Below are positions 627 through 20,000 of a DNA stretch of 20,000 nt, one piece after another (the stretch's first letter is position 1; each line of letters starts with the position of its first letter). Position numbers and translations under genes: made by a program. Source of the stretch: an uncultured virus (IMG/VR IMGVR_UViG_3300027798_000043) (Duplodnaviria > Heunggongvirae > Uroviricota > Caudoviricetes > Crassvirales); IMG/VR virus record IMGVR_UViG_3300027798_000043; one strand, written 5' to 3'. A model generated the notes under the pieces. That model searched no databases and was not told the origin of the DNA. It saw only the letters and a list, made by a program, of their open reading frames with translations.

Positions 627-1300
627 ATTACTAATACATTACCATTACTTGTTAATTTGCCAAATTTTCTATCGGTTACTACTGATCCATTACTAAACCA
701 TGTGTCGCATATACTTAATTTCTGAAGTCCAGCATTAATAATACCACCCATATTATGGATATGACCAAATAAATGATATGCAGGTTGAACTTCTAATAGT
801 TTATTAAGTAAAGATTTATCGCCACAACATTCTAGTAAACCATCACGATTTTCAGACTTGTCTAAAATATTTTTAGGGGGACCGTGGGTAATAACAATAT
901 TAGTTTCATTGTGTATAGCATCACACCAGAATCGGTCAAGTTTATTTCGATCTCTCATAAAAGACCAATTACCAAAGTTAGGTGTATAAGGCGAACCAAA
1001 TATTTTAATACCTTCAATGGTAACATAATCATTTTCTAGGTATATAATACCGTTGTCTTCAAAATCTTTTTTAGTTACTAGTTTCTTTTCAATGCTAGAG
1101 TCGTGGTTACCAGCTACGTATATTTTATACTTAGGCGATAACTCTTTATACCAGTCAATGAATTCTCTAACCTCAGGTTCGTTATTGTATGGATCTCTAG
1201 GATTGCTGCAATCACCAGAATGTATTACCATATCAATAGCTCTAGGTACTTTTAATAAGTCGTGATACGTGTGAGTATCGGAAATGTGCCATATTTTCAT
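623..1300 (-). CDS. Calcineurin-like metallophosphoesterase
   Basis: All five motifs present in order: SDTH, SGD, GNHD, THGPP, GHIH. Confidence 0.92.
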   Translation of the reverse strand: MKIWHISDTHTYHDLLKVPRAIDMVIHSGDCSNPRDPYNNEPEVREFIDWYKELSPKYKIYVAGNHDSSIEKKLVTKKDFEDNGIIYLENDYVTIEGIKIFGSPYTPNFGNWSFMRDRNKLDRFWCDAIHNETNIVITHGPPKNILDKSENRDGLLECCGDKSLLNKLLEVQPAYHLFGHIHNMGGIINAGLQKLSICDTWFSNGSVVTDRKFGKLTSNGNVLVI

Positions 1301-1470
1301 TATTCTTTATCTTCTACGAATTCTTTGAATCCATTAATAATTGTGCTGTGATGAAATGTAACCGCTATTAGCAGAGCGTAAAATACATCTACATATTCGT
1401 CAATTCCCATATCGTCACCTTCAATTTCAGTTGAATGTTTTCTTCCTTCCGCTTCTATCGTAATTTTCAT
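1300..1470 (-). CDS. 56-aa hypothetical protein (MKITIEAEGRKHSTEIEGDDMGIDEYVDVFYALLIAVTFHHSTIINGFKEFVEDKE)
   Basis: Hand-translated. Exactly fills the gap, with ATGA and TAATG overlaps on its neighbours. Confidence 0.75.
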   Translation of the reverse strand: MKITIEAEGRKHSTEIEGDDMGIDEYVDVFYALLIAVTFHHSTIINGFKEFVEDKE

Positions 1471-1664
1471 AATTTATTATCTTTTTCTATTAATTGAAAT
1501 ATATAACTCCATACTTTAACCTCAAACCTGTCTCTTATATTTAATTCTATTTGATGGGCTTTATCTATTTTCCAATATAAGTTCGGATCATTAGCTTCAA
1601 TTGTTGCAGTTAATAATGCGGATTCTATTTTCATTCTAGCGGATTCTTTAATTTCTTGCATCAT
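1467..1664 (-). CDS. Hypothetical protein, 65 aa
   Basis: ORF track; tightly coupled within the operon. Confidence 0.7.
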   Translation of the reverse strand: MMQEIKESARMKIESALLTATIEANDPNLYWKIDKAHQIELNIRDRFEVKVWSYIFQLIEKDNKL

Positions 1665-1912
1665 TATCCTAATTTATCAAGGTCTATATTCCATTCGGTT
1701 AACAATTCGTTTATTTTATCAAATACTAAATCTACGCCGCCATAAGCGCCACAGTCTTTACCGTTTGCTAAATCTCGATCAAGATCCCACTCACATTTTC
1801 TTTTTATATTATGAGATAATTCCCATAATAAACCGGCCATAGCGGGTGCCATATTGTGTATAGCAAATTCATAACTATCGTTTGGTAACTTAAATTTAAT
1901 TGTTGCTTTCAT
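1664..1912 (-). CDS. Hypothetical phage protein, 82 aa
   Basis: ORF track; coupled to neighbours. Confidence 0.75.
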   Translation of the reverse strand: MKATIKFKLPNDSYEFAIHNMAPAMAGLLWELSHNIKRKCEWDLDRDLANGKDCGAYGGVDLVFDKINELLTEWNIDLDKLG

Positions 1913-1913
1913 A

Positions 1914-2387
1914 TTAGTTAGGTCTTGTTCTTATTTCTTCGTTACTATTTCGTATTTTTATTTTTTCAGCTTCGTAATAATTCCAGTAAGCAGTTACGCT
2001 GTCACCGGGAACTTTGTATTCATCAGGCATACATTGAGGCATTGGCGTGGCGCCGAGGTTTAACATACCTCCGGGTATATTACTTAATACATCTTCGCAC
2101 TTTGTTATAGTTAAATGCTTTTTGCCGTAACGTTTGGTATACTCTTCGCCAAGCGCTAGCATGTGAAAGTACAGCCATGCGTAATTGTCAGCAGATTCTC
2201 GTGCCCATATAGCTGACGGATGATTTTTATGGGTCATCTTGTATGGTACATCTGCATCATCGCCATCTAACATAATATGGGCAGTACATAATAATTGTGC
2301 GGATTCTAAGATCATTTTTACAACGTGCTTATTGTACATCATTGTAGCCGCTTTGTCAGGATCTTTGTCTAAATAGAATATATTCAT
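1914..2387 (-). CDS. Pyrimidine-dimer DNA glycosylase / T4 endonuclease V-like family protein
   Basis: N-terminal MNIFYLD, KHVVKMILESAQLL, H-x-NHPS-x-x-W, EEY-x-x-RYGK-x-H and PQCMPDEYK motifs typical of the phage Pyr_excise-like family. Confidence 0.8.
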   Translation of the reverse strand: MNIFYLDKDPDKAATMMYNKHVVKMILESAQLLCTAHIMLDGDDADVPYKMTHKNHPSAIWARESADNYAWLYFHMLALGEEYTKRYGKKHLTITKCEDVLSNIPGGMLNLGATPMPQCMPDEYKVPGDSVTAYWNYYEAEKIKIRNSNEEIRTRPN

Positions 2388-2404
2388 AGTTTGTTTGTTT
2401 ATTA

Positions 2405-2438
2405 TATTATCAAAGTTGATTCGTGTTCAGTCTGTAAG
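2405..2438 (-). promoter_or_regulatory. Conserved promoter-like element, copy 1
   Basis: + strand TATTATCAA-agttga-TTCGTG-ttcagtc-TGTAAG, upstream of the ATG at 2387. Confidence 0.7.
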
Positions 2439-2568
2439 TTGCTGATTGTAGCTTTTTATTATGTTTATACAGTCGATTACCCCTACAATATGAACAACTG
2501 CCATTATTTCTACAGGATCTATCAAATACTCTTGATTTTCTGTACGCTTGTTTTACTGTTCTGCTCAT
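2410..2568 (-). CDS. 52-aa basic Cys-containing micro-protein (MSRTVKQAYRKSRVFDRSCRNNGSCSYCRGNRLYKHNKKLQSATYRLNTNQL)
   Basis: Hand-translated. A-rich leader ending ACTATG and a C-x5-C-x2-C motif; the stop codon lies inside promoter-like copy 1. Confidence 0.7.
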   Translation of the reverse strand: MSRTVKQAYRKSRVFDRSCRNNGSCSYCRGNRLYKHNKKLQSATYRLNTNQL

Positions 2569-2581
2569 AGTATTTAATTTA

Positions 2582-2892
2582 GGAACTAAAAGGGGAATCG
2601 AACCCCAAAACCCGTCGGTTGTGCCAGTAATCTTCTGTCCTTCACTTAGCTCTTGTTAACCCGGGAGGCGTCGTAAATTTTTGACCCCATATTTCAGGGG
2701 CAACCACAGCGCTACTGTTGGAATTAATTCATGCGACCCTGAGCGATTAACATATCGTTGTATCTTTTAATTCTGCCACGACCAATGCAAGAATCGACCG
2801 GGGGCACCCCAATCCCATAATTCAGAATTATGTGCTGTTTCCCACAAAACACAACCTCTACACTACCTTACCGATCGGATCAGCAGGACAAT
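2582..2892 (-). ncRNA. Putative structured RNA with a tRNA-like 3' module
   Basis: No ORF in the track, GC-richer than its flanks, several hairpins. The 3' end has a GGGG-TTCGATT-CCCC T-arm and a GAGCTAA/TTAGTTC acceptor-like stem, but no canonical D or anticodon arm. Confidence 0.5.
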
Positions 2893-2904
2893 TGTGTATA
2901 GCAA

Positions 2905-3513
2905 TTAGTGGATAATTAGACCCACTTTGTTAGTTTTGTTGAACCATCTAGTAGCATATAAATCTATTTCGCTAGTGTCAATATAGCCAAACTTAAGTAG
3001 CTCAGCACTGTTACTAAAGATTCTTGCGTGACGATCAACTTCTAAGTCAACCATGTGTTTTTGTTTACCAGACATACTATAGATAACGTCATAGTTTTCA
3101 GGTAAAGTTACTTCTTTAAATAGTTCAACCATATTAGTGTAACTGTAAAACCTAACGTTGGGATTATTTTTAGCGATCTCAATCCACTTCTGTAGATATT
3201 CTCTGCTATAGTAATCGCCGGAGTCGTGAACCCTCACATACTGAGGCTTCTTCTTCTGAATTTCCGCATTCATCTCAACTATGAAATCTGATGTTTTGGT
3301 TAACTCGTATCTTCTCTCAAACGCAGGTTTTACATTACCCCATATATACGCGCCCTTTTTAGCGTAACAAAACTTTACGCACTCATCAGCCATAGGACAT
3401 GTTAATTTACCAGATGCGGATTTATATGCGGGTATACCGAAGTTAAATACTTTAAGACCTAATACTTTGCTAGTCTTTTTTAATTTGGAATTCTGAGTGA
3501 GTAAGCTTGCCAT
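2905..3513 (-). CDS. Gp88-like phage protein (Cys cluster, radical-SAM-like)
   Basis: N-terminal NSKLKK, TCP-x4-C-x3-CYA cluster, VRVHDSGDYYS and FYSYT motifs. Confidence 0.75.
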   Translation of the reverse strand: MASLLTQNSKLKKTSKVLGLKVFNFGIPAYKSASGKLTCPMADECVKFCYAKKGAYIWGNVKPAFERRYELTKTSDFIVEMNAEIQKKKPQYVRVHDSGDYYSREYLQKWIEIAKNNPNVRFYSYTNMVELFKEVTLPENYDVIYSMSGKQKHMVDLEVDRHARIFSNSAELLKFGYIDTSEIDLYATRWFNKTNKVGLIIH

Positions 3514-3515
3514 TG

Positions 3516-3791
3516 TTAGTTAAATTTAATTGTTACGCCATTAGCTTTGATTCTTAAGATGCTTGCCAATGTTACCATTCTGTAGCTATCATCGTCCATT
3601 GAAAATACTTTCAATAAGTTGTAATTTTTAGGGTTATAAGCTAGCCCTTTACCTGTAAGATTTTTAGCCACGCCAAATCTAGCGTTGAAAGATCTTCTTG
3701 TACCATCTTTTTTAATAAAAGCGATGTTGAATATTCTACCTGTATCTCCTACAAGTTCATGAATAAATTGTGCTGTTTTTAAGTTTTTCAT
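3516..3791 (-). CDS. Small phage protein, probable SH3/Sm-like beta-barrel (F-x-KKDG-x-x-R family)
   Basis: FIKKDGTRR...VFSMDDDSYRMV pattern; directly downstream of promoter-like copy 2. Confidence 0.65.
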   Translation of the reverse strand: MKNLKTAQFIHELVGDTGRIFNIAFIKKDGTRRSFNARFGVAKNLTGKGLAYNPKNYNLLKVFSMDDDSYRMVTLASILRIKANGVTIKFN

Positions 3792-3806
3792 TTTTAATTT
3801 ATTTTA

Positions 3807-3850
3807 GTTACATTTATATTATCAATTGTTATTCGTATCCGTTTTGTAGA
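3807..3850 (-). promoter_or_regulatory. Conserved promoter-like element, copy 2
   Basis: GTTACA-ttta-TATTATCAA-ttgtta-TTCGTA-tccgttt-TGTAGA. Confidence 0.72.
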
Positions 3851-4093
3851 TTAATCCAATAATACCATATAAGCATCAGGATTTGCACGTCTAAACCAAT
3901 CTAACGCTTTAACAAGGGTTTGATCTTGTTTGCCTACATATACACAACCCATAATGAAGTCATACATACTTAATTCTGCAGGTGTTAAATCTATGCTGTA
4001 GCCGCTGAATGGATTAGTAACTTCGCTGCCGTCAGTGTATAGCATACCGTTGAACCATTTTGGTAGTAGCTGCTCTTTAATTTCTTTGCTCAT
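3851..4093 (-). CDS. Hypothetical phage protein, 80 aa (MSKEIKEQLLPKWF...YMVLLD)
   Basis: Track ORF 3851..4141. Start reassigned to the ATG at 4093 to minimise overlap with the upstream gene. Confidence 0.75.
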   Translation of the reverse strand: MSKEIKEQLLPKWFNGMLYTDGSEVTNPFSGYSIDLTPAELSMYDFIMGCVYVGKQDQTLVKALDWFRRANPDAYMVLLD

Positions 4094-4376
4094 TGATTTC
4101 TTGTTTTGCTTGTTCACTAATTTGTTCACTAATCGCTCCAATATGGAATTCTACTGATTCATCTTCAGACAACTGTCTATATTCTTTCCAATCATATATG
4201 GTAAATACATCACCATCTTCAGTCTCGCAATCCCATTCGAAGTTAACTTTATCTTCACCATAGTTATCTTCAAAGCTTGGGTTACCAAATAATTCTTTTA
4301 ACTTAGCTACCGTGGTAGTTATCGTAGTGCTATAAAAGCTTGTGCCATTTATACTTTTATTTGTTACTTTTGCCAT
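4077..4376 (-). CDS. Conserved-looking acidic phage protein, 99 aa (LFGNP...DKVNFEW...FTIYDWK)
   Basis: ORF track; TAATG coupling at 4376. Confidence 0.8.
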   Translation of the reverse strand: MAKVTNKSINGTSFYSTTITTTVAKLKELFGNPSFEDNYGEDKVNFEWDCETEDGDVFTIYDWKEYRQLSEDESVEFHIGAISEQISEQAKQEINEQRN

Positions 4377-4573
4377 TATTGTTTATGTTTTTTAAGTGTT
4401 AAGTCGTCTACTGTGTTTGTTATTTGTTTTACCATTTGTTCTAAATAAGCTACAGTAAATATACCGCGCCCGCCTGTAGCTTCGTGCTCATTAATATCAT
4501 TACTCCATTCTTTAAGTAATATTTGTAGTCCTTCCTTTAAAAACCACGCTTCCTGACCATTTAATTTTTTCAT
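4376..4573 (-). CDS. Hypothetical protein, 65 aa
   Basis: ORF track; leader AACAACTATG. Confidence 0.75.
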   Translation of the reverse strand: MKKLNGQEAWFLKEGLQILLKEWSNDINEHEATGGRGIFTVAYLEQMVKQITNTVDDLTLKKHKQ

Positions 4574-4578
4574 AGTTG

Positions 4579-4827
4579 TTATGTTAAAACGATTCTTAAT
4601 TTACTATCTTCAGTTTCGCCGGTTAGCATTTGTCTTTCATTGTCAAATACTAAATCAACTTTTAATTTTTTAGCAGCACTCAATGTATTGGGATTGATAT
4701 GCCCTTGTAAACTGATTTCATCTTTATGAACCCATACGTTTATAGAATAGAAATCTTCAAATTCTATAGATTTAGATAAAGTAGCAAATCTACCGACTAA
4801 ATTAATTTTTTTAGTTAAATCACTCAT
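4579..4827 (-). CDS. Hypothetical protein, 82 aa
   Basis: ORF track; leader AACAACTATG; follows promoter-like copy 3. Confidence 0.78.
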   Translation of the reverse strand: MSDLTKKINLVGRFATLSKSIEFEDFYSINVWVHKDEISLQGHINPNTLSAAKKLKVDLVFDNERQMLTGETEDSKLRIVLT

Positions 4828-4845
4828 AGTTGTTATATTTTATTG

Positions 4846-4889
4846 GTTACATTATTATTATCAATTGTTATTCGTATCCAGTCTGTAGA
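4846..4889 (-). promoter_or_regulatory. Conserved promoter-like element, copy 3
   Basis: GTTACA-ttat-TATTATCAA-ttgtta-TTCGTA-tccagtc-TGTAGA; overlaps the 3' end of CDS 4861..5145. Confidence 0.72.
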
Positions 4890-5145
4890 ACTGATCTAAT
4901 ACTAATTGCTCAAGCTTCTCTAATAGCTCATCATCAAGATCATCATCATCAAAGATAATAGTTATTTCTTCGTCACGTTCATATTTACGATCTCCTCTTA
5001 TAATTAATACGCCTTCGTAAGTTTCACCGCCAATTGTTACTTCACCGCCGGGTAATGTTATTTCTTCAGCATCCAAAGTTACATCAAAATAATAACGATC
5101 TACTGTCCTGCTAGAGGAATGGCTTATGTCTACTATGTTTTTCAT
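4861..5145 (-). CDS. Highly acidic hypothetical protein, 94 aa
   Basis: ORF track; D/E-rich C-terminal half. Confidence 0.75.
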   Translation of the reverse strand: MKNIVDISHSSSRTVDRYYFDVTLDAEEITLPGGEVTIGGETYEGVLIIRGDRKYERDEEITIIFDDDDLDDELLEKLEQLVLDQFYRLDTNNN

Positions 5146-5381
5146 TACTGTATTACTTTTATAAATTGTCCGTTTTTATCGTATAATATGTTTAATTCTA
5201 ATTCGTGATCTACTGTATCGATCATTGCGTTAATATCTTGGAACTGTAGACCAAGAGAAAATTCTTCAGCCGTTAATTGCATACCGCGGTAGTGTATAGC
5301 ATAGTCATACAAGAGTTGTGGGTTAACTACTCGGCCGTTGCGCATTGCAATCCATTTACTTTTTATTTCGTCTTTTACCAT
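5145..5381 (-). CDS. Hypothetical protein, 78 aa
   Basis: ORF track; TAATG coupling to the downstream gene. Confidence 0.75.
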   Translation of the reverse strand: MVKDEIKSKWIAMRNGRVVNPQLLYDYAIHYRGMQLTAEEFSLGLQFQDINAMIDTVDHELELNILYDKNGQFIKVIQ

Positions 5382-5532
5382 AGCTTAGTTCTAATCTTAA
5401 ATAATTATTATATACTCTGTTATATCCTTCAACCATTTTCTCATTGCTGCAATACTCTACATTTTGTATTATATTCCGCATCCATGAGTTAAACTTGTCG
5501 GTTTCTTTAATTGCTAATTGTTCTATAGTCAT
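5356..5532 (-). CDS. 58-aa hypothetical protein (MTIEQLAIKETDKFNSWMRNIIQ...GKRRNKK)
   Basis: Hand-translated. ATG 1 nt after the upstream stop; fills the gap between 5381 and 5534. Confidence 0.6.
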   Translation of the reverse strand: MTIEQLAIKETDKFNSWMRNIIQNVEYCSNEKMVEGYNRVYNNYLRLELSYGKRRNKK

Positions 5533-5533
5533 G

Positions 5534-5815
5534 TTAGTCTTCTTTAAGTAACCAGGTTATTAATTGTTTTTTATCGTCAAATACAAAGACCTCAGGGCTC
5601 TGTTTTAACGCTTGTCTTACAAACTCACGTTTAGTTGGTTTTGTCCAAGAGTACGCTACAGATAAGTCGTTAAGGGACATTGCTGCAAACGAATCTTCAT
5701 CTTTCTTAACAACGATATTCTTGGGACCGTTATTCCATTTAATACCAACATTACAACTGTCAGTTACTTCTGTTATATCAATGTTTTCCGCATCAAAATG
5801 TACTACTCTTTTCAT
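5534..5815 (-). CDS. Hypothetical protein, 93 aa
   Basis: ORF track; operon context. Confidence 0.75.
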   Translation of the reverse strand: MKRVVHFDAENIDITEVTDSCNVGIKWNNGPKNIVVKKDEDSFAAMSLNDLSVAYSWTKPTKREFVRQALKQSPEVFVFDDKKQLITWLLKED

Positions 5816-5816
5816 A

Positions 5817-6065
5817 TTAATATTTTTCTTTAATTTCGGTTAATGTTAGGTTATAGTGATTCCATAATTTTGTTCTACTAAATGCACTCGCTTTCGCGCC
5901 ATAAGAAGACTTCATCTTCGTTTTAACTTGTTTATAGTCATCGCTATTAAACTGTTTGCACATGCCATCAGTATTTACGGCATTGATCCTGTTCGCTCGG
6001 TTATGTGCTTTCTTTTCTTCAAGATATTGGCACGCTTCTTTCATATTGTTCGCTATTACTATCAT
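5817..6065 (-). CDS. Hypothetical basic protein, 82 aa (MIVIANNMKEA...)
   Basis: Track ORF 5817..6107. Start reassigned to the ATG at 6065, which overlaps the upstream stop (TAATG). Confidence 0.7.
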   Translation of the reverse strand: MIVIANNMKEACQYLEEKKAHNRANRINAVNTDGMCKQFNSDDYKQVKTKMKSSYGAKASAFSRTKLWNHYNLTLTEIKEKY

Positions 6066-6253
6066 TAGTCTTTGATTATATAGGTTAAACCGTTTAAATT
6101 GAACCACTCAGAGTAGCCGTCTTGATCTTCGTCATTAGTTATAAATCCGAACTTTGAGGGTAGATCACCGACAAGATATGACGTGTATAGCACACCGTTT
6201 AGTTTAATAAAATTGTTCTTTAAAAACTTGATTGATTTTTTTTCTTTGTTCAT
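6065..6253 (-). CDS. Hypothetical protein, 62 aa
   Basis: ORF track; leader AACAACTATG; follows promoter-like copy 4. Confidence 0.78.
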   Translation of the reverse strand: MNKEKKSIKFLKNNFIKLNGVLYTSYLVGDLPSKFGFITNDEDQDGYSEWFNLNGLTYIIKD

Positions 6254-6268
6254 AGTTGTTTAGTATTG

Positions 6269-6312
6269 GTTACATTATTATTATCAAACTTAATTCGTAT
6301 TCGTTCTGTAAA
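6269..6312 (-). promoter_or_regulatory. Conserved promoter-like element, copy 4
   Basis: GTTACA-ttat-TATTATCAA-acttaa-TTCGTA-ttcgttc-TGTAAA. Confidence 0.72.
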
Positions 6313-6314
6313 GG

Positions 6315-6509
6315 TTATTGATTTGCTAACGCTATTGCTAGTTCTTCGTGTATTTCGTCGATCATTCTTAGTATGTGGTATGATGCATGTACTTGATGGT
6401 TATCATTGCATCTTAAGGCATCAGCGAGTACATCTGTATGCTCGTCTTTTAAGTGGTCAATAGCCACTTGAATTACATTAGCTTCTTGTTTTGTTATTGT
6501 TATAACCAT
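6315..6509 (-). CDS. Hypothetical helical protein, 64 aa
   Basis: ORF track; leader ending ACACTATG. Confidence 0.72.
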   Translation of the reverse strand: MVITITKQEANVIQVAIDHLKDEHTDVLADALRCNDNHQVHASYHILRMIDEIHEELAIALANQ

Positions 6510-6514
6510 AGTGT

Positions 6515-6760
6515 TTAGTCGTTTAAGTATTCGGTTAAAGCATAGTTAAATGCAGATTCTAATAAATTTAATTCGCAGATCTCGCCAATTCGTTTGTTTA
6601 CTAATATACATTCAGCATCAGTGAATATAGCTTTGTCTGTTTTGTCGATCACGTCAGCCGGATCGTCTTCAAAGTGAAATAATCTATCGTTTAATACTAG
6701 ATTGTCGACGAAAGACTTCATGTCAGCTGAAGACTTAATTTGCTTGTTTAAGAATATCAT
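6515..6760 (-). CDS. Hypothetical protein, 81 aa (FHFEDDPADVI motif)
   Basis: ORF track; follows promoter-like copy 5. Confidence 0.78.
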   Translation of the reverse strand: MIFLNKQIKSSADMKSFVDNLVLNDRLFHFEDDPADVIDKTDKAIFTDAECILVNKRIGEICELNLLESAFNYALTEYLND

Positions 6761-6774
6761 AGTAGTTTGTTTTA

Positions 6775-6818
6775 GTTACATCAATATTATCAAATCTAAT
6801 TCGTATTCGTTTTGTAAG
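6775..6818 (-). promoter_or_regulatory. Conserved promoter-like element, copy 5
   Basis: GTTACA-tcaa-TATTATCAA-atctaa-TTCGTA-ttcgttt-TGTAAG. Confidence 0.72.
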
Positions 6819-6822
6819 GGTG

Positions 6823-6984
6823 TTATATTGCCATGATGTCAGTGCAATCAAAGTCTTCCCAGTCTAATACGATTTCAGCTTTACTGTATTGATCGGTGAC
6901 AATGTCAACCGCTGTTTGTTCGTCAACAGCATCGATGTATAGCACTCTAGATGCCGTTTCTACAATTCTAATTTTATATTCCAT
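6823..6984 (-). CDS. DpnD/PcfM-like small protein, 53 aa (MEYKIRIVETASRVLYIDAVDEQTAVDIVTDQYSKAEIVLDWEDFDCTDIMAI)
   Basis: Hand-translated. The I-x-ET-x-SR...A...A...Y...EIVLD-x-EDF pattern matches the DpnD/PcfM-like family as I recall it. Confidence 0.7.
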   Translation of the reverse strand: MEYKIRIVETASRVLYIDAVDEQTAVDIVTDQYSKAEIVLDWEDFDCTDIMAI

Positions 6985-6985
6985 A

Positions 6986-7210
6986 TTAATCTTTATATTT
7001 TACATCCGCCATAAAGCTAGCGCACGCTATGTTACTTAATCTTTTTAATTCCGCATAGTACTCGGCATTAACAGTCTTATCAACAATCCAATCAACTAAT
7101 TTACCATAGTCATCGGTGTGATATGTTGAATTCTCAATATTACATTTGTACATTTGTCGATCCGGAAAATACGGATTAATATACTCTACAATTTGGTTAT
7201 CTCCTATCAT
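6986..7210 (-). CDS. Hypothetical protein, 74 aa
   Basis: ORF track; operon context. Confidence 0.72.
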   Translation of the reverse strand: MIGDNQIVEYINPYFPDRQMYKCNIENSTYHTDDYGKLVDWIVDKTVNAEYYAELKRLSNIACASFMADVKYKD

Positions 7211-7213
7211 ACT

Positions 7214-7459
7214 TTATTTTTTATAAATTATCATTTCATATTTATTAGGTATATTTTCAAAATATAATCCACTTGCATTTAATATTGACTCATAGTATTT
7301 ATAGTGTTCAGCTAAGGTTGTATAACCTAAAGTATATTCACCACTATTAATAGGTTCGATATTTATAAATCCTAAGTAACCATCGTCACTTCGATCAAAT
7401 TGGAAATCATTTCTTATAATTCCAATACACTCACACACTAATCTATCTATACTATTCAT
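7214..7459 (-). CDS. Hypothetical protein, 81 aa (MNSIDRLVCEC...)
   Basis: Track ORF 7214..7549. Start reassigned to the ATG at 7459 because the upstream part is occupied by a better ORF in another frame. Confidence 0.65.
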   Translation of the reverse strand: MNSIDRLVCECIGIIRNDFQFDRSDDGYLGFINIEPINSGEYTLGYTTLAEHYKYYESILNASGLYFENIPNKYEMIIYKK

Positions 7460-7562
7460 CTTCCTCATCATCGTAAAATTCGCAATGTTCCATACAATCT
7501 GGACATAATCCATACTCTTCCATGTCGGTGTATGCACCGCAACAATCACTTACTAAACTCAT
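7452..7562 (-). CDS. 36-aa Cys-rich, probable metal-binding micro-protein (MSLVSDCCGAYTDMEEYGLCPDCMEHCEFYDDEEDE)
   Basis: Hand-translated. CCGA...CxxCxxHC pattern, A-rich leader and acidic tail. Confidence 0.72.
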   Translation of the reverse strand: MSLVSDCCGAYTDMEEYGLCPDCMEHCEFYDDEEDE

Positions 7563-7631
7563 ATTTTCTATTTTTTATTTATTATATTTGTTATATTCTA
7601 TATCTTGTAGTGCATTCTGATTTATCTGCAT

Positions 7632-7799
7632 TTATATGGTATTTATTTGCTCATTTGTTAGCGAATTTCGCCACATTTGTATGTATTCTTCTTCTTCAGG
7701 GTATTCCGCCAAAGAACCTTTGTTATTAGAGTTCATAAATTCTTCGCCAAACATATAGGTAAAGTACTCTTTTTCAGTCATTCCATAGTAATCTTGCAT
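7632..7799 (-). CDS. 55-aa hypothetical protein (MQDYYGMTEKEYF...EEEEYIQMWRNSLTNEQINTI)
   Basis: Hand-translated. First ATG after promoter-like copy 6; its C-terminus is similar to ORF 9795..9908. Confidence 0.72.
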   Translation of the reverse strand: MQDYYGMTEKEYFTYMFGEEFMNSNNKGSLAEYPEEEEYIQMWRNSLTNEQINTI

Positions 7800-7819
7800 A
7801 GTAGAATTAGTTATTGTTA

Positions 7820-7863
7820 GTTACACTTATATTATCAAATCAATCTCGTATTCGTTTTGTAAG
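7820..7863 (-). promoter_or_regulatory. Conserved promoter-like element, copy 6
   Basis: GTTACA-ctta-TATTATCAA-atcaat-CTCGTA-ttcgttt-TGTAAG. Confidence 0.72.
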
Positions 7864-7925
7864 GGTGGATAGATGTTTAATCGATTTTAAAGAGATAATG
7901 GTATAATCCCTGACTTCACTAAGCC

Positions 7926-8195
7926 TTAGTCATTTCGGTACGATACATAAGCCCAGATTGCCTGGTTGATACGGTCGAGTTCGCATTTGCCTCCGAGGTA
8001 ACGGTGTATAGCATTGTAGAACTTAGTTAGTTCGACGCAATTCTTGCAAAAGTACATTTTAAAGATGTCAATTTCTTCGCCTTGCATGAAATTTAGTCCA
8101 ACAATATCGTCTCCTACTTTTTCGATGTAGACATAGCGGTCATCTTGGTTGCACCATACGATCTCTTTACTCTCAATAATCTTGTATTCACTCAT
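7926..8195 (-). CDS. Hypothetical protein, 89 aa
   Basis: ORF track; follows promoter-like copy 7. Confidence 0.78.
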   Translation of the reverse strand: MSEYKIIESKEIVWCNQDDRYVYIEKVGDDIVGLNFMQGEEIDIFKMYFCKNCVELTKFYNAIHRYLGGKCELDRINQAIWAYVSYRND

Positions 8196-8209
8196 AGTAG
8201 TTGTTTTTA

Positions 8210-8253
8210 GTTACATCATTATTATCAAAAGTCATTCGTGTTCGTTTTGTAAG
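8210..8253 (-). promoter_or_regulatory. Conserved promoter-like element, copy 7
   Basis: GTTACA-tcat-TATTATCAA-aagtca-TTCGTG-ttcgttt-TGTAAG. Confidence 0.72.
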
Positions 8254-8386
8254 CGGTGCTATACACGTTTTACTTCGAAAACGGTGAGAAATGATCGTTT
8301 TACCTCAAATTTGGGTATGTTGTAGGACGGAGTCTACTCTTCCGGCGCTATCTCAAAGCCAGGCTAACATAGTGTATAGCAAAAAG

Positions 8387-8432
8387 AGTGACATTAGCTG
8401 CTTATAACTACTAATAGCAGGCTAACGTCGCT
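8387..8432. repeat. 46-bp inverted-repeat element, copy A
   Basis: AGTGACATTAGC-N22-GCTAACGTCGCT, flanked by A5 and T6 tracts; may also act as a terminator. Confidence 0.8.
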
Positions 8433-8444
8433 GTTTTTTATGTG

Positions 8445-8636
8445 TTATTCGTTATCTTTATCGATCATTTGCTTCAATTTACCTTCGAGCATTACGGTGC
8501 CGACTGTTCGATCGTAGTCACGTACTTCGATGCAATTATCGATTACTGTGAATTGATATTCCGTAGCGTCTTTTGGCGTGTATAGCACAACCGTAGTTAC
8601 AATAGTTCCGATTAGCATTCCAATTATTAGTTTCAT
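8445..8636 (-). CDS. 63-aa protein with an N-terminal hydrophobic helix (membrane anchor or signal)
   Basis: ORF track; MKLIIGMLIGTIVTTVVLY N-terminus. Confidence 0.75.
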   Translation of the reverse strand: MKLIIGMLIGTIVTTVVLYTPKDATEYQFTVIDNCIEVRDYDRTVGTVMLEGKLKQMIDKDNE

Positions 8637-8665
8637 AGTTGTTTATTTCATAGTTGTTTATTTTA

Positions 8666-8709
8666 GATTCATTATTATTATCAATTGTACTTCGTATTCG
8701 TTCTGTAAG
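8666..8709 (-). promoter_or_regulatory. Conserved promoter-like element, copy 8
   Basis: GATTCA-ttat-TATTATCAA-ttgtac-TTCGTA-ttcgttc-TGTAAG. Confidence 0.72.
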
Positions 8710-8741
8710 TGTATAGCATCCCCGTAGGGAGCCAAAGCAGT

Positions 8742-9143
8742 CTAACTTAGACTTGCTTCAGCATCTTGAAATTCTTTTGAATTTTCATTGATTTCAACTT
8801 CAACTTCAATTGTTGCATTCTTGATTGATAATTCAACAACTTCTAGATTTTCAATGTTAGCTAGATGTCTGACATTACTTGGCATATCAGTAGATTGTGA
8901 CCAGTATTGTCTTTTAATCCAACATGGCATTATTGATAGCTTTGGTAGCATGACTTTTAATACTTCATCATGATTGTAAGTTACTTTCTGATTTTTGTTG
9001 TTGATGAAAGTTATTACTTGATTTCGGCCAAGCCAATTCTTTCTGACTACGAAGTTAGCTCGTTCGATCGGCGGATAGATTAAAGCCAAGTCAGCAGTTG
9101 ATAATTTAGCGATCGCTTGTTGTAATAATTCTTGATTGTTCAT
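8742..9143 (-). CDS. Hypothetical phage protein, 133 aa
   Basis: ORF track; leader AACAACTATG; follows promoter-like copy 9. Confidence 0.8.
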   Translation of the reverse strand: MNNQELLQQAIAKLSTADLALIYPPIERANFVVRKNWLGRNQVITFINNKNQKVTYNHDEVLKVMLPKLSIMPCWIKRQYWSQSTDMPSNVRHLANIENLEVVELSIKNATIEVEVEINENSKEFQDAEASLS

Positions 9144-9179
9144 AGTTGTTTAATTTAAAGTTTATATTATTATTTGTTA

Positions 9180-9223
9180 GTTACATTATTATTATCAAAG
9201 TCTGTTCGTATCTAGACTGTAAG
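9180..9223 (-). promoter_or_regulatory. Conserved promoter-like element, copy 9
   Basis: GTTACA-ttat-TATTATCAA-agtctg-TTCGTA-tctagac-TGTAAG. Confidence 0.72.
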
Positions 9224-9239
9224 AAGTTGTATAGCATTT

Positions 9240-9353
9240 TTATTCTATTATAGTTAAGTCAACTATTATTTGTTCAGTTTCTGGATCAAAAATATATTTG
9301 ATTTTATTATTGTTTAAATAGTTCAGTAAGTCAGTTCTAGTTTCTTCGTTCAT
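9240..9353 (-). CDS. 37-aa micro-protein (MNEETRTDLLNYLNNNKIKYIFDPETEQIIVDLTIIE)
   Basis: Hand-translated; the only ORF between promoter-like copies 10 and 9. Confidence 0.65.
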   Translation of the reverse strand: MNEETRTDLLNYLNNNKIKYIFDPETEQIIVDLTIIE

Positions 9354-9367
9354 ATTGTTTGTTTTTA

Positions 9368-9411
9368 TATTCATTATTATTATCAAATTCAATTCGTATT
9401 GGTTTTGTAAG
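9368..9411 (-). promoter_or_regulatory. Conserved promoter-like element, copy 10
   Basis: TATTCA-ttat-TATTATCAA-attcaa-TTCGTA-ttggttt-TGTAAG. Confidence 0.72.
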
Positions 9412-9450
9412 TTACTTTATTTTTATTTAGATTAGTTTGTTACTTTGTTA

Positions 9451-9494
9451 CTTACATATATATTATCAAATACCATTCGTATTCAGACTGTAAA
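9451..9494 (-). promoter_or_regulatory. Conserved promoter-like element, copy 11
   Basis: CTTACA-tata-TATTATCAA-atacca-TTCGTA-ttcagac-TGTAAA. Confidence 0.72.
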
Positions 9495-9558
9495 TGCTAT
9501 ACACGAGCTCCGCTCGCAAGCTCGCACGGTCCCGGCTGCCAATTCCATCGAGTGGAGT

Positions 9559-9581
9559 AAAAAGGTCCCGATTAAAGGACC
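9559..9581 (-). terminator. Probable intrinsic terminator
   Basis: Minus strand GGTCC-tttaatcg-GGACC-TTTTT, 13 nt after the stop at 9595. Confidence 0.55.
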
Positions 9582-9594
9582 GAATTCCGTTATG

Positions 9595-9798
9595 TTAGTT
9601 CAGTGCTGGATCGAACTCTTCGGAGTCAACCCATGCCCAGTACGAAGCTCCTTGTCGGGTCTCATCCCACTTGCACATGCCTGAGATCGCGAAGTTGTGC
9701 GTGATGCACGTTTGGACCCAGTCCTGGCCGAATTGCCATCTTGTTTCCTCGATCATGTCGAGTCTCGTTTGTGGATGTAGATCATTTAATCTTTTCAT
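9595..9798 (-). CDS. Hypothetical Trp-rich protein, 67 aa (MKRLNDLHPQTRLDM...)
   Basis: Track ORF 9595..9852. Start reassigned to the ATG at 9798, which forms an ATGA overlap with the upstream micro-ORF. Confidence 0.7.
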   Translation of the reverse strand: MKRLNDLHPQTRLDMIEETRWQFGQDWVQTCITHNFAISGMCKWDETRQGASYWAWVDSEEFDPALN

Positions 9799-9908
9799 GC
9801 GATGTATTCGTTTAGTTGGTTTAATTGTTCTTGAGTTAGGCTTGATCTCCACGCTTGTACGTAGACTTCATCTTCTTGATATAGTAATTCTAATTCTTCT
9901 TCTGACAT
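9795..9908 (-). CDS. 37-aa acidic micro-protein (MSEEELELLYQEDEVYVQAWRSSLTQEQLNQLNEYIA)
   Basis: Hand-translated. First ATG after promoter-like copy 12; similar to ORF 7632..7799. Confidence 0.72.
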   Translation of the reverse strand: MSEEELELLYQEDEVYVQAWRSSLTQEQLNQLNEYIA

Positions 9909-9924
9909 TTTGTAGTATTTATTT

Positions 9925-9968
9925 GTTACATATATATTATCAAATGTACTTCGTATTCGTCTTGTAGG
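9925..9968 (-). promoter_or_regulatory. Conserved promoter-like element, copy 12 (first of the leftward arm)
   Basis: GTTACA-tata-TATTATCAA-atgtac-TTCGTA-ttcgtct-TGTAGG. Confidence 0.72.
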
Positions 9969-10390
9969 AAATGCTATACGCGTTGCTATACACGCTCAGC
10001 GTCGCTCCGCTCCGTGTCGTAACATAATGCCACATAGCGCACATAGCCCCGTCATACGGGAATGTATTGTATTACGTACATATAATACCATATCGTACAT
10101 AATAACGTACACACGGCACGTAGCAGCAGCTAGCAGCCAGCCCTGGAAAGCCGGAACCGTTCACGGAATCCCACGGGAAAGTCGAAACGATACGCCGAAA
10201 GCCGGAATATATTCGGGGACCCGGCAAAATGAAATGCAATTCCGTTTCCGTTTGGAAAAATGAAAATACGTATATAGCCCCTTAATTATATATATCTGAC
10301 AATACGCTTTTACCTCCACGCGAGACTACGCCGGGCTACTAAAAAATTTTTTATTATATTTTTTTTAGGAACTACTTGTTGTGCTATAAT

Positions 10391-10499: not shown

Positions 10500-10751
10500 A
10501 TGGCACAGAAATTATCACCTGCTGCGGCTAAAGCAAAAGCTGTGCGGGATAAAGCGTTTGCAATGACCGCTGAAAGAAAAGAGAAGAAAGCACATTCCCA
10601 AAGGATGCATCGTAAGAACCCTTCTGCTAAAGGAAAGGACTATGACCATGAGGACGGTAGGTTTGAATCTGTAAAGCAGAATAGGGGTAATGAAGGTGAG
10701 GGAACTAAGAAGGAGAGTGGTAAGAAATATAAAATAAATAAGAACAAATAG
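10500..10751 (+). CDS. Small basic protein, 83 aa, with a possible degenerate HNH-like motif (DYDH...S...NRG)
   Basis: ORF track; K/R-rich. The HNH resemblance is weak. Confidence 0.75.
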   Translation: MAQKLSPAAAKAKAVRDKAFAMTAERKEKKAHSQRMHRKNPSAKGKDYDHEDGRFESVKQNRGNEGEGTKKESGKKYKINKNK

Positions 10752-18368: not shown

Positions 18369-18723
18369 AACAGAAAAGTCCACCATAGGCGAAATGACTA
18401 TAGATGGTAAATGGGAATGTTATACACTAGAAGATATAGAAAGAGATGTTAAGATCAAATCTGAAACAGCTATTCCTAAAGGAACATATAAAGTCATAAT
18501 AAATCAATCTAATAGATTTAAAAAGTTGTTACCTTTGTTATTAAATGTACCTAATTTCGAAGGAATACGGATACATCCAGGTAACACAAATCACGATACT
18601 GAAGGTTGTATATTGGTAGGTAAAACAATGTCAAAGGATTTCATAGGTCAATCAAGAAAAGCTTTTGAATCTTTATTCGCGAAAATGAAGCCAGCTAAAG
18701 AGATAACTCTAACTATAACATAA
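18340..18723 (+). CDS. DUF5675-family protein, candidate endolysin
   Basis: STIG...CYTLE...TAIPKGTY...VPNFEGIRIHPGN...TEGCILVG pattern; sits between holin-like and spanin-like genes. Confidence 0.8.
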   Translation: MKITIKRLYKTEKSTIGEMTIDGKWECYTLEDIERDVKIKSETAIPKGTYKVIINQSNRFKKLLPLLLNVPNFEGIRIHPGNTNHDTEGCILVGKTMSKDFIGQSRKAFESLFAKMKPAKEITLTIT

Positions 18724-19370: not shown

Positions 19371-20000
19371 ATGTCAGATGCAATTGTCAAAAACCTTAGT
19401 TTTGGTGATGATGCCAAGAACAAGGTATTTGAGGGTATTACAAAATTAACACTAGCAGTTAGCTCAACTCTTGGGGCGAGCGGTAAATGTGTGATGTTAG
19501 AAGACGGAACAGGCAACCCTGTCATTACAAAAGACGGCGTAACAGTTGCTGATTCTATTATACTGTTAGACCCTATTGAAAATATGGGGGCAACGCTTTT
19601 AAAAGAAGCAGCCAGGAAAACAGTTAAAGAAGCGGGAGACGGAACAACCACGGCAACGGTATTAGCTCACGCTATTTTATCTGAGGCTTATAGAGTTAAA
19701 GACACTATTAGCCAGAGAGAACTTAAAAACGGCATTGAAGCTACTGTTGAAAAAGTAATTGAATATTTAGATTCTATTGCTGTACCGGTAACAGGAACAA
19801 TGATTGACCAGATTGCAACTATATCAACAAACAACGACCCTGTCTTAGGTAAAATTATTGGGGACGCTTTTAGGGCGGTTAAGGAAACGGGGATTGTTAT
19901 GATGGAGACATCGGCATTAGCGGAAACTGAAATTGAAATATTAGACGGCGTACAATATGATAAAGGATTAGTTAATTCGCACTTTATTACAAATCATACA
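19371..20000 (+). CDS. groEL: Phage-encoded GroEL-like chaperonin, 3'-truncated by the window edge
   Basis: Hand-translated MSDAIVKNLSFGDDAK...TLGASG...ITKDGVTVA...ENMGA...AGDGTTTATVLA...IATISTNND; hallmark Cpn60 motifs. Confidence 0.95.
   Translation, partial: MSDAIVKNLSFGDDAKNKVFEGITKLTLAVSSTLGASGKCVMLEDGTGNPVITKDGVTVADSIILLDPIENMGATLLKEAARKTVKEAGDGTTTATVLAHAILSEAYRVKDTISQRELKNGIEATVEKVIEYLDSIAVPVTGTMIDQIATISTNNDPVLGKIIGDAFRAVKETGIVMMETSALAETEIEILDGVQYDKGLVNSHFITNHT

Follow-up and report, generated by a model that had tools for sequence, protein, structure and literature searches.

Organization of the window and copies of the 10-mer

The stretch analyzed here, called the window throughout, is 20,000 nucleotides (nt) of DNA from an uncultured virus assigned to Crassvirales (IMG/VR record IMGVR_UViG_3300027798_000043), and the subject of this report is an asymmetric 10-mer, TGCTATACAC, that recurs along one of its two arms. 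The left half of the window contains about 30 small open reading frames (ORFs) directed leftward, while genes of the right half run rightward from position 10027. The left arm encodes a metallophosphoesterase, an endonuclease-V-like (Pyr_excise) protein, a GP88-family protein and many ORFans; the right arm carries tail-fibre genes, a DUF5675 gene and the start of a GroEL-like gene. Start codons in the window are preceded by A-rich stretches without Shine-Dalgarno sequences, an arrangement typical of Bacteroidota.

The 10-mer is present in the window in 13 exact and four one-mismatch copies, with 16 of these 17 located between positions 911 and 9993. Dinucleotide-preserving shuffles of the window (n = 200) contained 1.52 copies on average and six at most, and none of the 200 reached 17. 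An earlier annotation made from the letters alone, referred to below as the sequence-only reading, had listed the copies with their orientations and gaps, and every number checked was correct. The copies are as follows:

911–920, minus strand: exact, in the metallophosphoesterase gene (623–1300), frame AIH
1856–1865, minus strand: exact, in an 82-aa ORF (1664–1912), frame AIH
2894–2903, minus strand: exact, intergenic, 1 nt past the stop of the GP88-family gene (2905–3513)
4035–4044, minus strand: exact, in the ORF 3851–4093, frame MLYT
5292–5301, minus strand: exact, in a 78-aa ORF (5145–5381), frame AIH
6183–6192, minus strand: exact, in a 62-aa ORF (6065–6253), frame VLYT
6935–6944, minus strand: one-mismatch copy TGCTATACAT, in a DpnD/PcfM-like ORF (6823–6984); C10T, a tolerated variant
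8004–8013, minus strand: exact, in an 89-aa ORF (7926–8195), frame AIH
8257–8266, plus strand: exact, reversed, intergenic, 4 nt off the upstream edge of the promoter-like repeat 8210–8252
8372–8381, minus strand: exact, intergenic, convergent with the 8257 copy
8578–8587, minus strand: exact, in a 63-aa ORF (8445–8636), frame VLYT
8709–8718, minus strand: exact, directly abutting the promoter-like repeat 8666–8708
9227–9236, minus strand: one-mismatch copy TGCTATACAA, 4 nt upstream of the promoter-like repeat 9180–9222
9495–9504, plus strand: exact, reversed, 1 nt from the promoter-like repeat 9451–9493, with a GC-rich hairpin after it
9972–9993, plus strand: tandem TGCTATACGC-gt-TGCTATACAC at the right-arm border, 34 nt before the ATG at 10027 and back-to-back with the promoter-like repeat 9925–9967
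18418–18427, plus strand: one-mismatch copy TGTTATACAC, in the DUF5675 gene

All eight copies of the arm body (911–8004, including the 6935 variant) share the minus strand, the coding strand for genes directed leftward, and are separated by successive gaps of 945, 1038, 1141, 1257, 891, 752, and 1069 nt. Seven of the eight are intragenic, a proportion close to coding density, and they occupy two frames. The statement that seven exact copies fall inside unrelated ORFs in two different frames was confirmed: AIH is encoded at 911, 1856, 5292, and 8004, and LYT at 4035, 6183, and 8578. The distance from a copy to the next start codon downstream varies in the window from 76 to 377 nt, with no fixed position.

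The divergent region is arranged differently. Eight copies in both orientations are found here inside 1.8 kb, where the GC skew changes sign, and the plus-strand copies (8257, 9495, and 9984 exact, 9972 variant) are all intergenic. The window thus carries the motif on both strands rather than on one only, the plus-strand copies adjoining promoter-like repeats. The tandem pair TGCTATACGC-gt-TGCTATACAC is conserved in the relatives L001, L003, L004, L028, and L077, and the intergenic copy at 2894 has an orthologous counterpart in relative G002. The isolated copy at 18418 is probably not part of the site system and probably reflects ordinary coding conservation; the same word, TGTTATACAC, is the sole match in the 23 kb of relative G001 (4204–4213), again in a DUF5675 gene.

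The working motif is TGCTATAC[AG][CT], in which variants are tolerated at positions 9 and 10 alone (GC, AT, GT) and a preceding C is avoided (2 of 119 exact copies in 11 genomes). Of these 119 copies, 67 are located on the coding strand of ORFs, 13 on the opposite strand and 39 between genes.

Selection on the DNA and even spacing

Comparison of orthologous genes indicates what is conserved at these positions. In the phosphoesterase gene (911) the exact word was found in all seven distinct orthologous stretches, with varying flanks (CD-AIH-NET vs KL-AIH-EPC), and in the gene at 1856 it was kept in three of three. The 62-aa gene (6183) has the exact word in 9 of 30 orthologous stretches; 11 orthologues encode LYT, nine of them with exactly the motif codons, and the rest encode other residues. 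In the family of the 89-aa gene (8004), close relatives carry the word as N-AIH-R, and four distant members carry it 6 nt further on, read as Q-MLYT-F. Copies are both gained and lost: at 4035 the exact word is present in 3 of 41 orthologous stretches, one of them at 49% protein identity. The proposal that the constraint acts on DNA rather than on protein is upheld by these comparisons, since orthologues retain the word despite changed flanking codons and one family carries it in two frames. The site system is real and selected at the DNA level, being neither a protein motif nor a product of chance.

The gaps of the arm body have a coefficient of variation of 0.15, and none of 20,000 random placings was as even. 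Spacing was also significantly even in relative L001 (P = 0.0008), with most other relatives at P values of 0.007 to 0.08, while in L007 it was not significant (P = 0.36); the arrays of some relatives take in clustered upstream copies, which raises their coefficient of variation. Between orthologous sites, G002 and the window each contain two further non-orthologous copies, and where a gap in G002 is doubled, with twice the DNA, an extra non-orthologous copy is located in its middle. The phage keeps one site per approximately 1 kb on the non-template (coding) strand of an arm of about 15 kb, whatever gene happens to be there.

Distribution of the 10-mer in the phage family

The window gave no nucleotide match against 50,697 phage records. 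IMG/VR contains more than 100 related contigs of 63–69 kb, and by terminase the nearest cultured phages, at about 43% identity, infect Flavobacterium, Cellulophaga, Tenacibaculum, and Maribacter. Public sequencing runs containing the window (one at 0.73 of words) were labelled freshwater or lake. The closest relative, G003, shares 80–90% identity with the window, in patches. Its leftward arm carries small genes and genes for a sigma-70-type factor, Erf, an exonuclease, a primase-helicase, ThyA, MazG, and ribonucleotide reductase, and its rightward arm those for tail fibres, GroEL/ES, terminase, portal and structural proteins and a 2992-aa ORF. The arrangement seen in the window, with co-oriented copies along the small-gene arm and reversed copies clustered upstream, is shared by many relatives.

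The first five complete relatives all carry the word, in 8–15 copies each, and it is present in 36 of 49 further related records and in 25/36 among those at least 90% complete. No other non-trivial 10-mer is as frequent in motif-positive whole genomes; the control, the letter-reversed word, gave 0–1 matches per genome. The word is therefore a family trait of uncultured phages of about 63–69 kb, distant kin of Flavobacterium and Cellulophaga podophages. In complete relatives it is confined to one arm, with 14 of 15 copies inside the approximately 15 kb small-gene arm in G003 and likewise 14 of 15 in G002. No copy was found in the first 50 of the 60 kb of Flavobacterium phage elemoE or in the first 50 of the 61 kb of MW202828.1. 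In the literature, the word and its complement were found as parts of primers only.

Words of other kinds occur in some relatives. A search for a replacement word in motif-free relatives returned merely pieces of promoter-like repeats and a tail-fibre coding repeat, the exception being TGCTATACGT in the G054 clade (see below). MW202828.1 (L111, 1–50000), a more distant relative, has instead a palindromic word around GTGTCGTTAACGACAC at about 11 places. Phage elemoE (L226, NC_055854.1, 1–50000) shows the same two-arm layout and carries TATCTTTGCA six times on one strand, which fits the TAnnTTTG promoter box of Bacteroidota.

The crowding of copies in the divergent region raises the question of replication or packaging. 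The clustered copies could be origin iterons or a region cut by terminase or an HNH enzyme, and the arm copies could serve the primase-helicase as secondary sites for loading or priming on the template of the lagging strand. The position of the cluster at the sign change of the GC skew and the tandem spacing of some copies at 12 nt would suit this explanation, as would the location of the arm copies on what should be the lagging-strand template of a leftward fork; several IMG/VR contigs also end within a few hundred bases of the cluster. The skew change, however, coincides with the switch of coding strand, and two IMG/VR records flagged for terminal repeats do not end at the cluster. The other 50 kb of the genome lack sites, so that neither general priming nor the progress of packaging can depend on them, and motif-free relatives with the same replication and packaging genes manage without them. 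We consider such a role hardly credible. The same two records have the arm in mid-contig, and no genome ends were found; the suggestion of the sequence-only reading that the array marks the first-entering DNA found no support.

Several other features of the genomes were recorded. GroEL and GroES homologues are encoded at 19371–20000 of the window and 21384–23184 of G003, and a second GroES-like gene precedes the terminase gene; all of this is also true of elemoE. The relatives swap types of ribonucleotide reductase, a single 622-aa protein alternating with a two-subunit class I-like pair (e.g., G002 53560–55428 vs G003 56734–59644). The 2992-aa ORF of G003 (47630–56608; L105:7630–16608), located at the end of the structural arm, was considered as a possible virion RNA polymerase, but Pfam, PHROGs, PDB sequences and the phage database all yielded no match for it; its counterparts in relatives, of 3695 and 3860 aa, are annotated only as structural.

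Promoter-like repeats adjacent to the sites

The small-gene arm of the window contains a second repeat, designated here the P-element. It has the structure TTACAnAACGAATACGAA-N6-7-TTGATAATAnnnATGTAAC, is 43 nt long and is present in 12 intergenic copies, all on the minus strand, each ending 15–25 nt ahead of the ATG of a leftward gene:

9925–9967, minus strand: P-element
9451–9493, minus strand: P-element
9368–9410, minus strand: P-element
9180–9222, minus strand: P-element
8666–8708, minus strand: P-element
8210–8252, minus strand: P-element
7820–7862, minus strand: P-element
6775–6817, minus strand: P-element, strain joint 6278 to 6785
6269–6311, minus strand: P-element, strain joint 6278 to 6785
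4846–4888, minus strand: P-element, strain joint 4831 to 9918
3807–3849, minus strand: P-element, strain joint 3838 to 9447
2395–2437, minus strand: P-element

By its sequence and position the P-element looks like a bipartite promoter plus leader. Its core, TTGATAAT, which resembles −10 boxes of the sigma-28 type, is also found in motif-free relatives, and the sigma factor of the phage may be its reader. In public contigs, the joints between strain variants fall at P-elements, so these repeats probably also serve as recombination linkers. The public runs were the 24 listed, six of them RNA, taken as Logan contigs, which are assembled; ends, strand and expression level are unreadable in them, and uncovered parts carry no meaning. 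As a place of recombination between strains, the P-element, though not the 10-mer, is similar to the PeSL cassettes of T4-type phages, conserved promoter repeats located between small early genes at which strains recombine; the sequences of the two differ. Searches of the window for the Bacteroidota consensus TAnnTTTG, with or without an upstream TTG, found no enrichment and were uninformative, a generic promoter and terminator scan remained at or below shuffle level, and Rfam and tRNA scans found nothing. No literature was found on promoters of Cellulophaga or Flavobacterium phages.

The upstream edge of 5 of the 12 P-elements is abutted by the 10-mer at a distance of 0–5 nt, in either orientation, and the plus-strand copies of the divergent region are followed by GC-rich hairpins that start within the last bases of the word. 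Predicted folding downstream is somewhat stronger for non-coding copies (mean −2.8 kcal/mol) than for coding ones (−1.7 kcal/mol; P = 0.01). The 10-mer could be a minimal phage-specific promoter itself, extended −10-like (TGnTATAcA) and firing in its own direction, with internal co-oriented promoters feeding the early arm and reversed copies driving the first operon of the right arm and short structured RNAs. The orientation of the arm copies, which follows gene direction, is consistent with this proposal, as are the hairpins behind the reversed non-coding copies and the tandem pair ahead of the first right-arm ATG, where no other conserved element was seen.

The family also encodes a sigma-70-type factor of its own, represented in G003 by a 254-aa protein (66956–67720, minus strand; L106:6956–7720) with weak matches to regions 2 and 4. 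This gene is intact in 16 of 17 whole genomes, including all seven motif-free ones, and fragmented in G055, and its product in some positive genomes is closer to that of negative ones than to that of other positives. Being a core gene in motif-free relatives too, it is not the determinant of the word, and its presence does not track the word. Further points speak against promoter function: start codons follow at variable distance, seven of the eight arm-body copies are intragenic, and the arm already possesses 12 strong promoter-like repeats directly before its genes. Promoters would not be expected to be evenly spaced or to fill gaps, two of them only 12 nt apart would block one another, and the word mismatches the Bacteroidota −7/−33 consensus. 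We regard this explanation as improbable.

Two further loci of the left arm were noted. At 9564–9908 (minus strand), in the GC-rich divergent region, ORFs of 37 and 67 aa overlap through ATGA, and a terminator-like hairpin is located at 9564–9581. A non-coding, GC-richer stretch of 336 nt (2569–2904) follows the GP88-family gene. One RNA run contains a variant lacking exactly 2569–2905, another joint skips 2623–2820, and the deepest RNA contig of run X3 spans 2612–3604; the stretch has no Rfam match and no tRNA.

A candidate partner of the site

A site conserved in this manner is very probably read by a phage protein. The candidate is encoded by the second gene of the right arm, and its family is named fam3 below:

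10500–10751, plus strand: fam3 gene, encoding an 83-aa basic protein, candidate for acting on the 10-mer

Presence/absence profiling of 17 whole genomes (10 with the word, seven without) yielded three candidates, including fam3. The second, the 89-aa family (window 7926–8195), was rejected because it is absent from the motif-positive genomes G028 and G030, and the third, the 622-aa type of ribonucleotide reductase, because it merely swaps with another type. Profiling on loci of ±10 kb was discarded as confounded by relatedness. In the association set of 41 records at least 90% complete, for which only presence or absence was scored, fam3 is encoded in all 22 records with at least four copies of the word. 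Among the 15 records with at most one copy, 13 lack fam3, one has a weak split match and one, G054, a clear homologue; the four records with two or three copies comprise one with fam3, two with weak matches and one with none. On the terminase tree the motif-positive state needs at least three changes.

Genome G054 combines a diverged fam3 with a different word. It carries five copies of TGCTATACGT where 0.15 would be expected; three have the orientation of the arm copies, and one lies reversed upstream of the fam3 gene. Two of these copies are orthologous to TGCTATACAC sites of G028 and G030, AIR replacing AIH, and the sister genomes G026 and G045, which lack both fam3 and the site, encode QIT at those positions. 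From this co-occurrence we infer that fam3 may be the protein recognizing the site.

One search collected 343 members of the fam3 family and a profile search 240 cluster representatives, none of which has a name or a Pfam domain, and tblastn of fam3 against the 50,697 phage records gave no match. Its alignment (A1) has invariant D47, H50, R54, N61, and R62, in a D-x-D-H ... N-R-x-N pattern. An AlphaFold2 model with a mean predicted local distance difference test (pLDDT) score of 73.6 consists of two long helices, a beta-hairpin (46–49, 54–57) and a helix (58–64), with H50 placed after strand 1 and N61/N64 in the helix, an order of elements that we take to be that of His-Me/HNH nucleases. The nearest named clusters in ESM-Atlas were HNH_3 and HNH (0.92, 176 shared features). 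In the VIA structure list the best Z score was 3.2, and two small HNH nicking enzymes appeared at Z 2.9 and 2.4, which is noise level, among unrelated rows. These weak leads hint that fam3 could be a nuclease of the His-Me/HNH type. The 18 longer fam3 homologues scanned for fused domains contained none that was informative.

The possibility that the word is a universal iteron was rejected. In 596 Gb of bacterial genomes, two copies within 30 nt occur at 55 loci of very diverse phyla, with periods of 11–44 nt. The 111 ORFs beside these loci share no family, the neighbours being unrelated housekeeping genes, and only five of the loci contain a fam3 gene, all of them on contigs of Bacteroidota metagenome-assembled genomes that belong to this phage family; the remaining bacterial loci are chance minisatellites.

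The location of the fam3 operon bears on another explanation, in which the signal acts in RNA: early transcripts would carry UGCUAUACAC as a target for an RNA-binding protein or endoribonuclease of phage or host origin, with about one site per early transcription unit. A phage enzyme of this kind, RegB of T4, cuts early messages. All intragenic copies of the window are on the sense strand, most units between P-elements hold one or two copies, and the tandem copies would sit in the 5′ leader of the fam3 operon, which makes self-control conceivable. Against an RNA signal, no rightward transcript is predicted to cover the reversed copies at 8257 and 9495, which abut P-elements on the DNA, and 13 of the 119 copies from 11 genomes are antisense to called ORFs. 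No conserved RNA structure was found around intragenic copies, nor any Rfam match in the window. This makes an RNA-level signal very unlikely.

Comparison with known site systems

The sequence-only reading named programmed nick sites and the stoperators of mycobacteriophage L5 as analogues, and tf-like nick motifs and L5 stoperators are indeed the closest documented systems (PMC3517423, PMC11780129, and PMC9283540). The DNA of Pseudomonas phage tf carries 14 nicks in TACT/RTGMC, all in one strand; 11 of them fall in the left half of its genome, whose two gene sets converge, and relatives of tf have similar sites at similar places (PMC3517423). In Rembedalsseter, also a Pseudomonas phage, 13 nicks occur at WACTRTGAC. 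Across this phage and 60 relatives, a genome contains on average a net 9 copies of the 9-mer where chance would give 0.7. The 9-mer is kept between phages with only 8% BLASTN coverage and lies inside coding sequences in 88% of cases, mostly on the coding strand, and for this group the enzyme and the function of the nicks are described as unknown (PMC11780129).

By analogy, the traits of tf-like nick motifs match those of the arm-body copies of the window. Both are short asymmetric words that recur about ten times in a genome, well beyond chance, and are kept by relatives whose nucleotide sequences show hardly any similarity. Both are intragenic at about coding density, lie mostly on the coding strand, crowd toward the early half of genomes built of two opposed arms, and are tolerant of single-base variants at few positions only. 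The present system differs in that the word is confined to one arm of approximately 15 kb, is evenly spaced and is known from sequence alone, in having inverted and tandem copies beside promoter-like repeats, in offering a candidate for the cognate protein and a lineage whose word has switched (AC to GT), and in its hosts, which are of Bacteroidota type; the words share only T-CTAT. Because the motif occurs on both strands, the system is classed as working like nick-site systems rather than as a member of them. The nicks of T5 and of phiKMV-like phages (cited in PMC3517423) are likewise strand-specific interruptions at sequence-defined places, and in T5 the responsible genes map to the late region. 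However, the major nicks of T5 are few and irregular with a loose consensus, those of phiKMV-type phages number 3–4 per genome and lie in the non-coding strand, and neither forms a 1-kb array.

The L5-type repressor, which binds as a monomer, has more than 20 sites; these are asymmetric 13-mers located both at promoters and in short spaces between genes, and their orientation follows transcription (PMC9283540). Stoperators of L5 and cluster A phages share with the present sites their asymmetry, their many copies, their location both beside promoters and along transcribed DNA, and an orientation tied to transcription. They differ as 13-mers of short intergenic spaces in both arms of temperate phages encoding a 183-aa helix-turn-helix (HTH) repressor, whereas the words described here are 10-mers, mostly intragenic and in one arm only, with promoter-side copies in either orientation. 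No HTH repressor or integrase was found among the window ORFs or 52 G003 proteins; one G003 ORF has a weak HTH_11 match (E = 0.0012).

This likeness supports an explanation by polar roadblocks and operators, in which a phage protein, with fam3 as the candidate, would bind the asymmetric site without cutting it, as at L5 stoperators. Copies beside P-elements would damp or insulate initiation, the oriented copies at approximately 1 kb would stop elongating RNA polymerase, and the early arm would be shut off upon expression of the right arm. The sites at about −41 to −55 of 5 of the 12 P-elements and the tandem pair preceding the first operon of the other arm fit this scheme, and all eight arm-body copies are oriented with transcription. 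Even spacing suits the silencing of a long multi-promoter arm, fam3 is small, basic and, in the model, largely helical, and an L5-type repressor acts on asymmetric 13-mers at promoters and elsewhere (PMC9283540).

On the other side, the sites of L5 occupy short intergenic spaces vs seven of eight intragenic arm-body copies here, and orientation and offset (0–5 nt) vary among promoter-adjacent copies, so that the geometry is not fixed. L5-type sites drift with their repressors, whereas lineages sharing just 40–60% identity in fam3 have exactly the same 10-mer. The annotation of G003 contains no integrase or immunity module, and the invariant residues of fam3 include D, H, and N, not K/R alone. 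Binding without cutting is, in our assessment, unlikely, though it ranks directly after nicking.

Programmed strand nicks as the preferred interpretation

The interpretation placed first is that the sites mark programmed nicks in one strand, as known from tf, Rembedalsseter, and T5, and that fam3 is the candidate nickase; we give it a probability of roughly 40%. It is followed by the roadblock or operator, then by the promoter, and last by the RNA signal or replication and packaging. In the proposed mechanism, TGCTATAC[AG][CT] would be the recognition site of a phage-encoded sequence-specific DNA protein, the candidate being fam3. The protein would be made with late or right-arm genes and would cut the motif-bearing strand, and virion DNA would thus carry programmed single-strand nicks, as in tf, Rembedalsseter, T5, and phiKMV-like phages. 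Recognition would then end in a nick and not in binding alone. With the nicks placed on the non-template strand, early transcription could cross them before they are sealed, which would provide a rationale for the strand rule.

Several observations weigh against nicking or against fam3 as its agent. No nick was seen in the 24 public runs, which are contigs that mark no starts or stops of molecules. There are exact copies on the plus strand, tandem copies 12 nt apart and sites abutting 5 of the 12 P-elements; tandem and promoter-abutting copies are unreported for nick motifs in the sources cited above, and a regulator would fit them better. The fam3 protein has no Pfam match, even at E = 10, no Foldseek match and no match of its profile to PDB sequences at E up to 10, and hhalign against an alignment of I-HmuI-like HNH enzymes, one HNH subfamily, gave a probability of 0.08%. 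The spacing from H to N in fam3 is shorter than is usual in HNH enzymes. The fam3 gene is located 0.5–1 kb from the copies of the divergent region, so that physical linkage could explain part of the co-occurrence, and since the genomes are related, the co-occurrence counts are not independent. The ORFs of the relatives were called naively (ATG start, longest frame). Another protein, with its specificity in a few residues, may be the reader of the site.

A stronger form of the interpretation, in which fam3 would be a minimal nicking enzyme of an undescribed family that writes a nick ruler of approximately 1 kb on the non-template strand of the host-takeover arm, is, as we judge it, rather unlikely.

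Significance for phage biology

Nicks in phage genomes have been known since T5, while the enzyme, outside T5 genetics, and the purpose are still described as unknown (PMC11780129, PMC3517423). The system described here offers several handles: an exact word that overrides protein sequence, a spacing rule, restriction to one arm, relatives free of the system and a candidate partner. Depending on which explanation holds, the outcome would be a new promoter class, the first nickase–site pair, or silencing of the stoperator kind in a lytic phage of Bacteroidota; a site that is merely bound, or is a promoter, would amount to a well-documented regulatory motif of moderate interest. If fam3 does write the nicks, this would be the first nicked-genome system with an identified enzyme, and the first in which enzyme and site have switched specificity together, from …ACAC to …ACGT at orthologous positions. 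To our knowledge, phage nicks have lacked an explained function for 50 years. In that case, the promoter-side copies and the evenness of the array would point to one: nicks may keep the entering early arm relaxed and transcribable, or may hide it from host defences.

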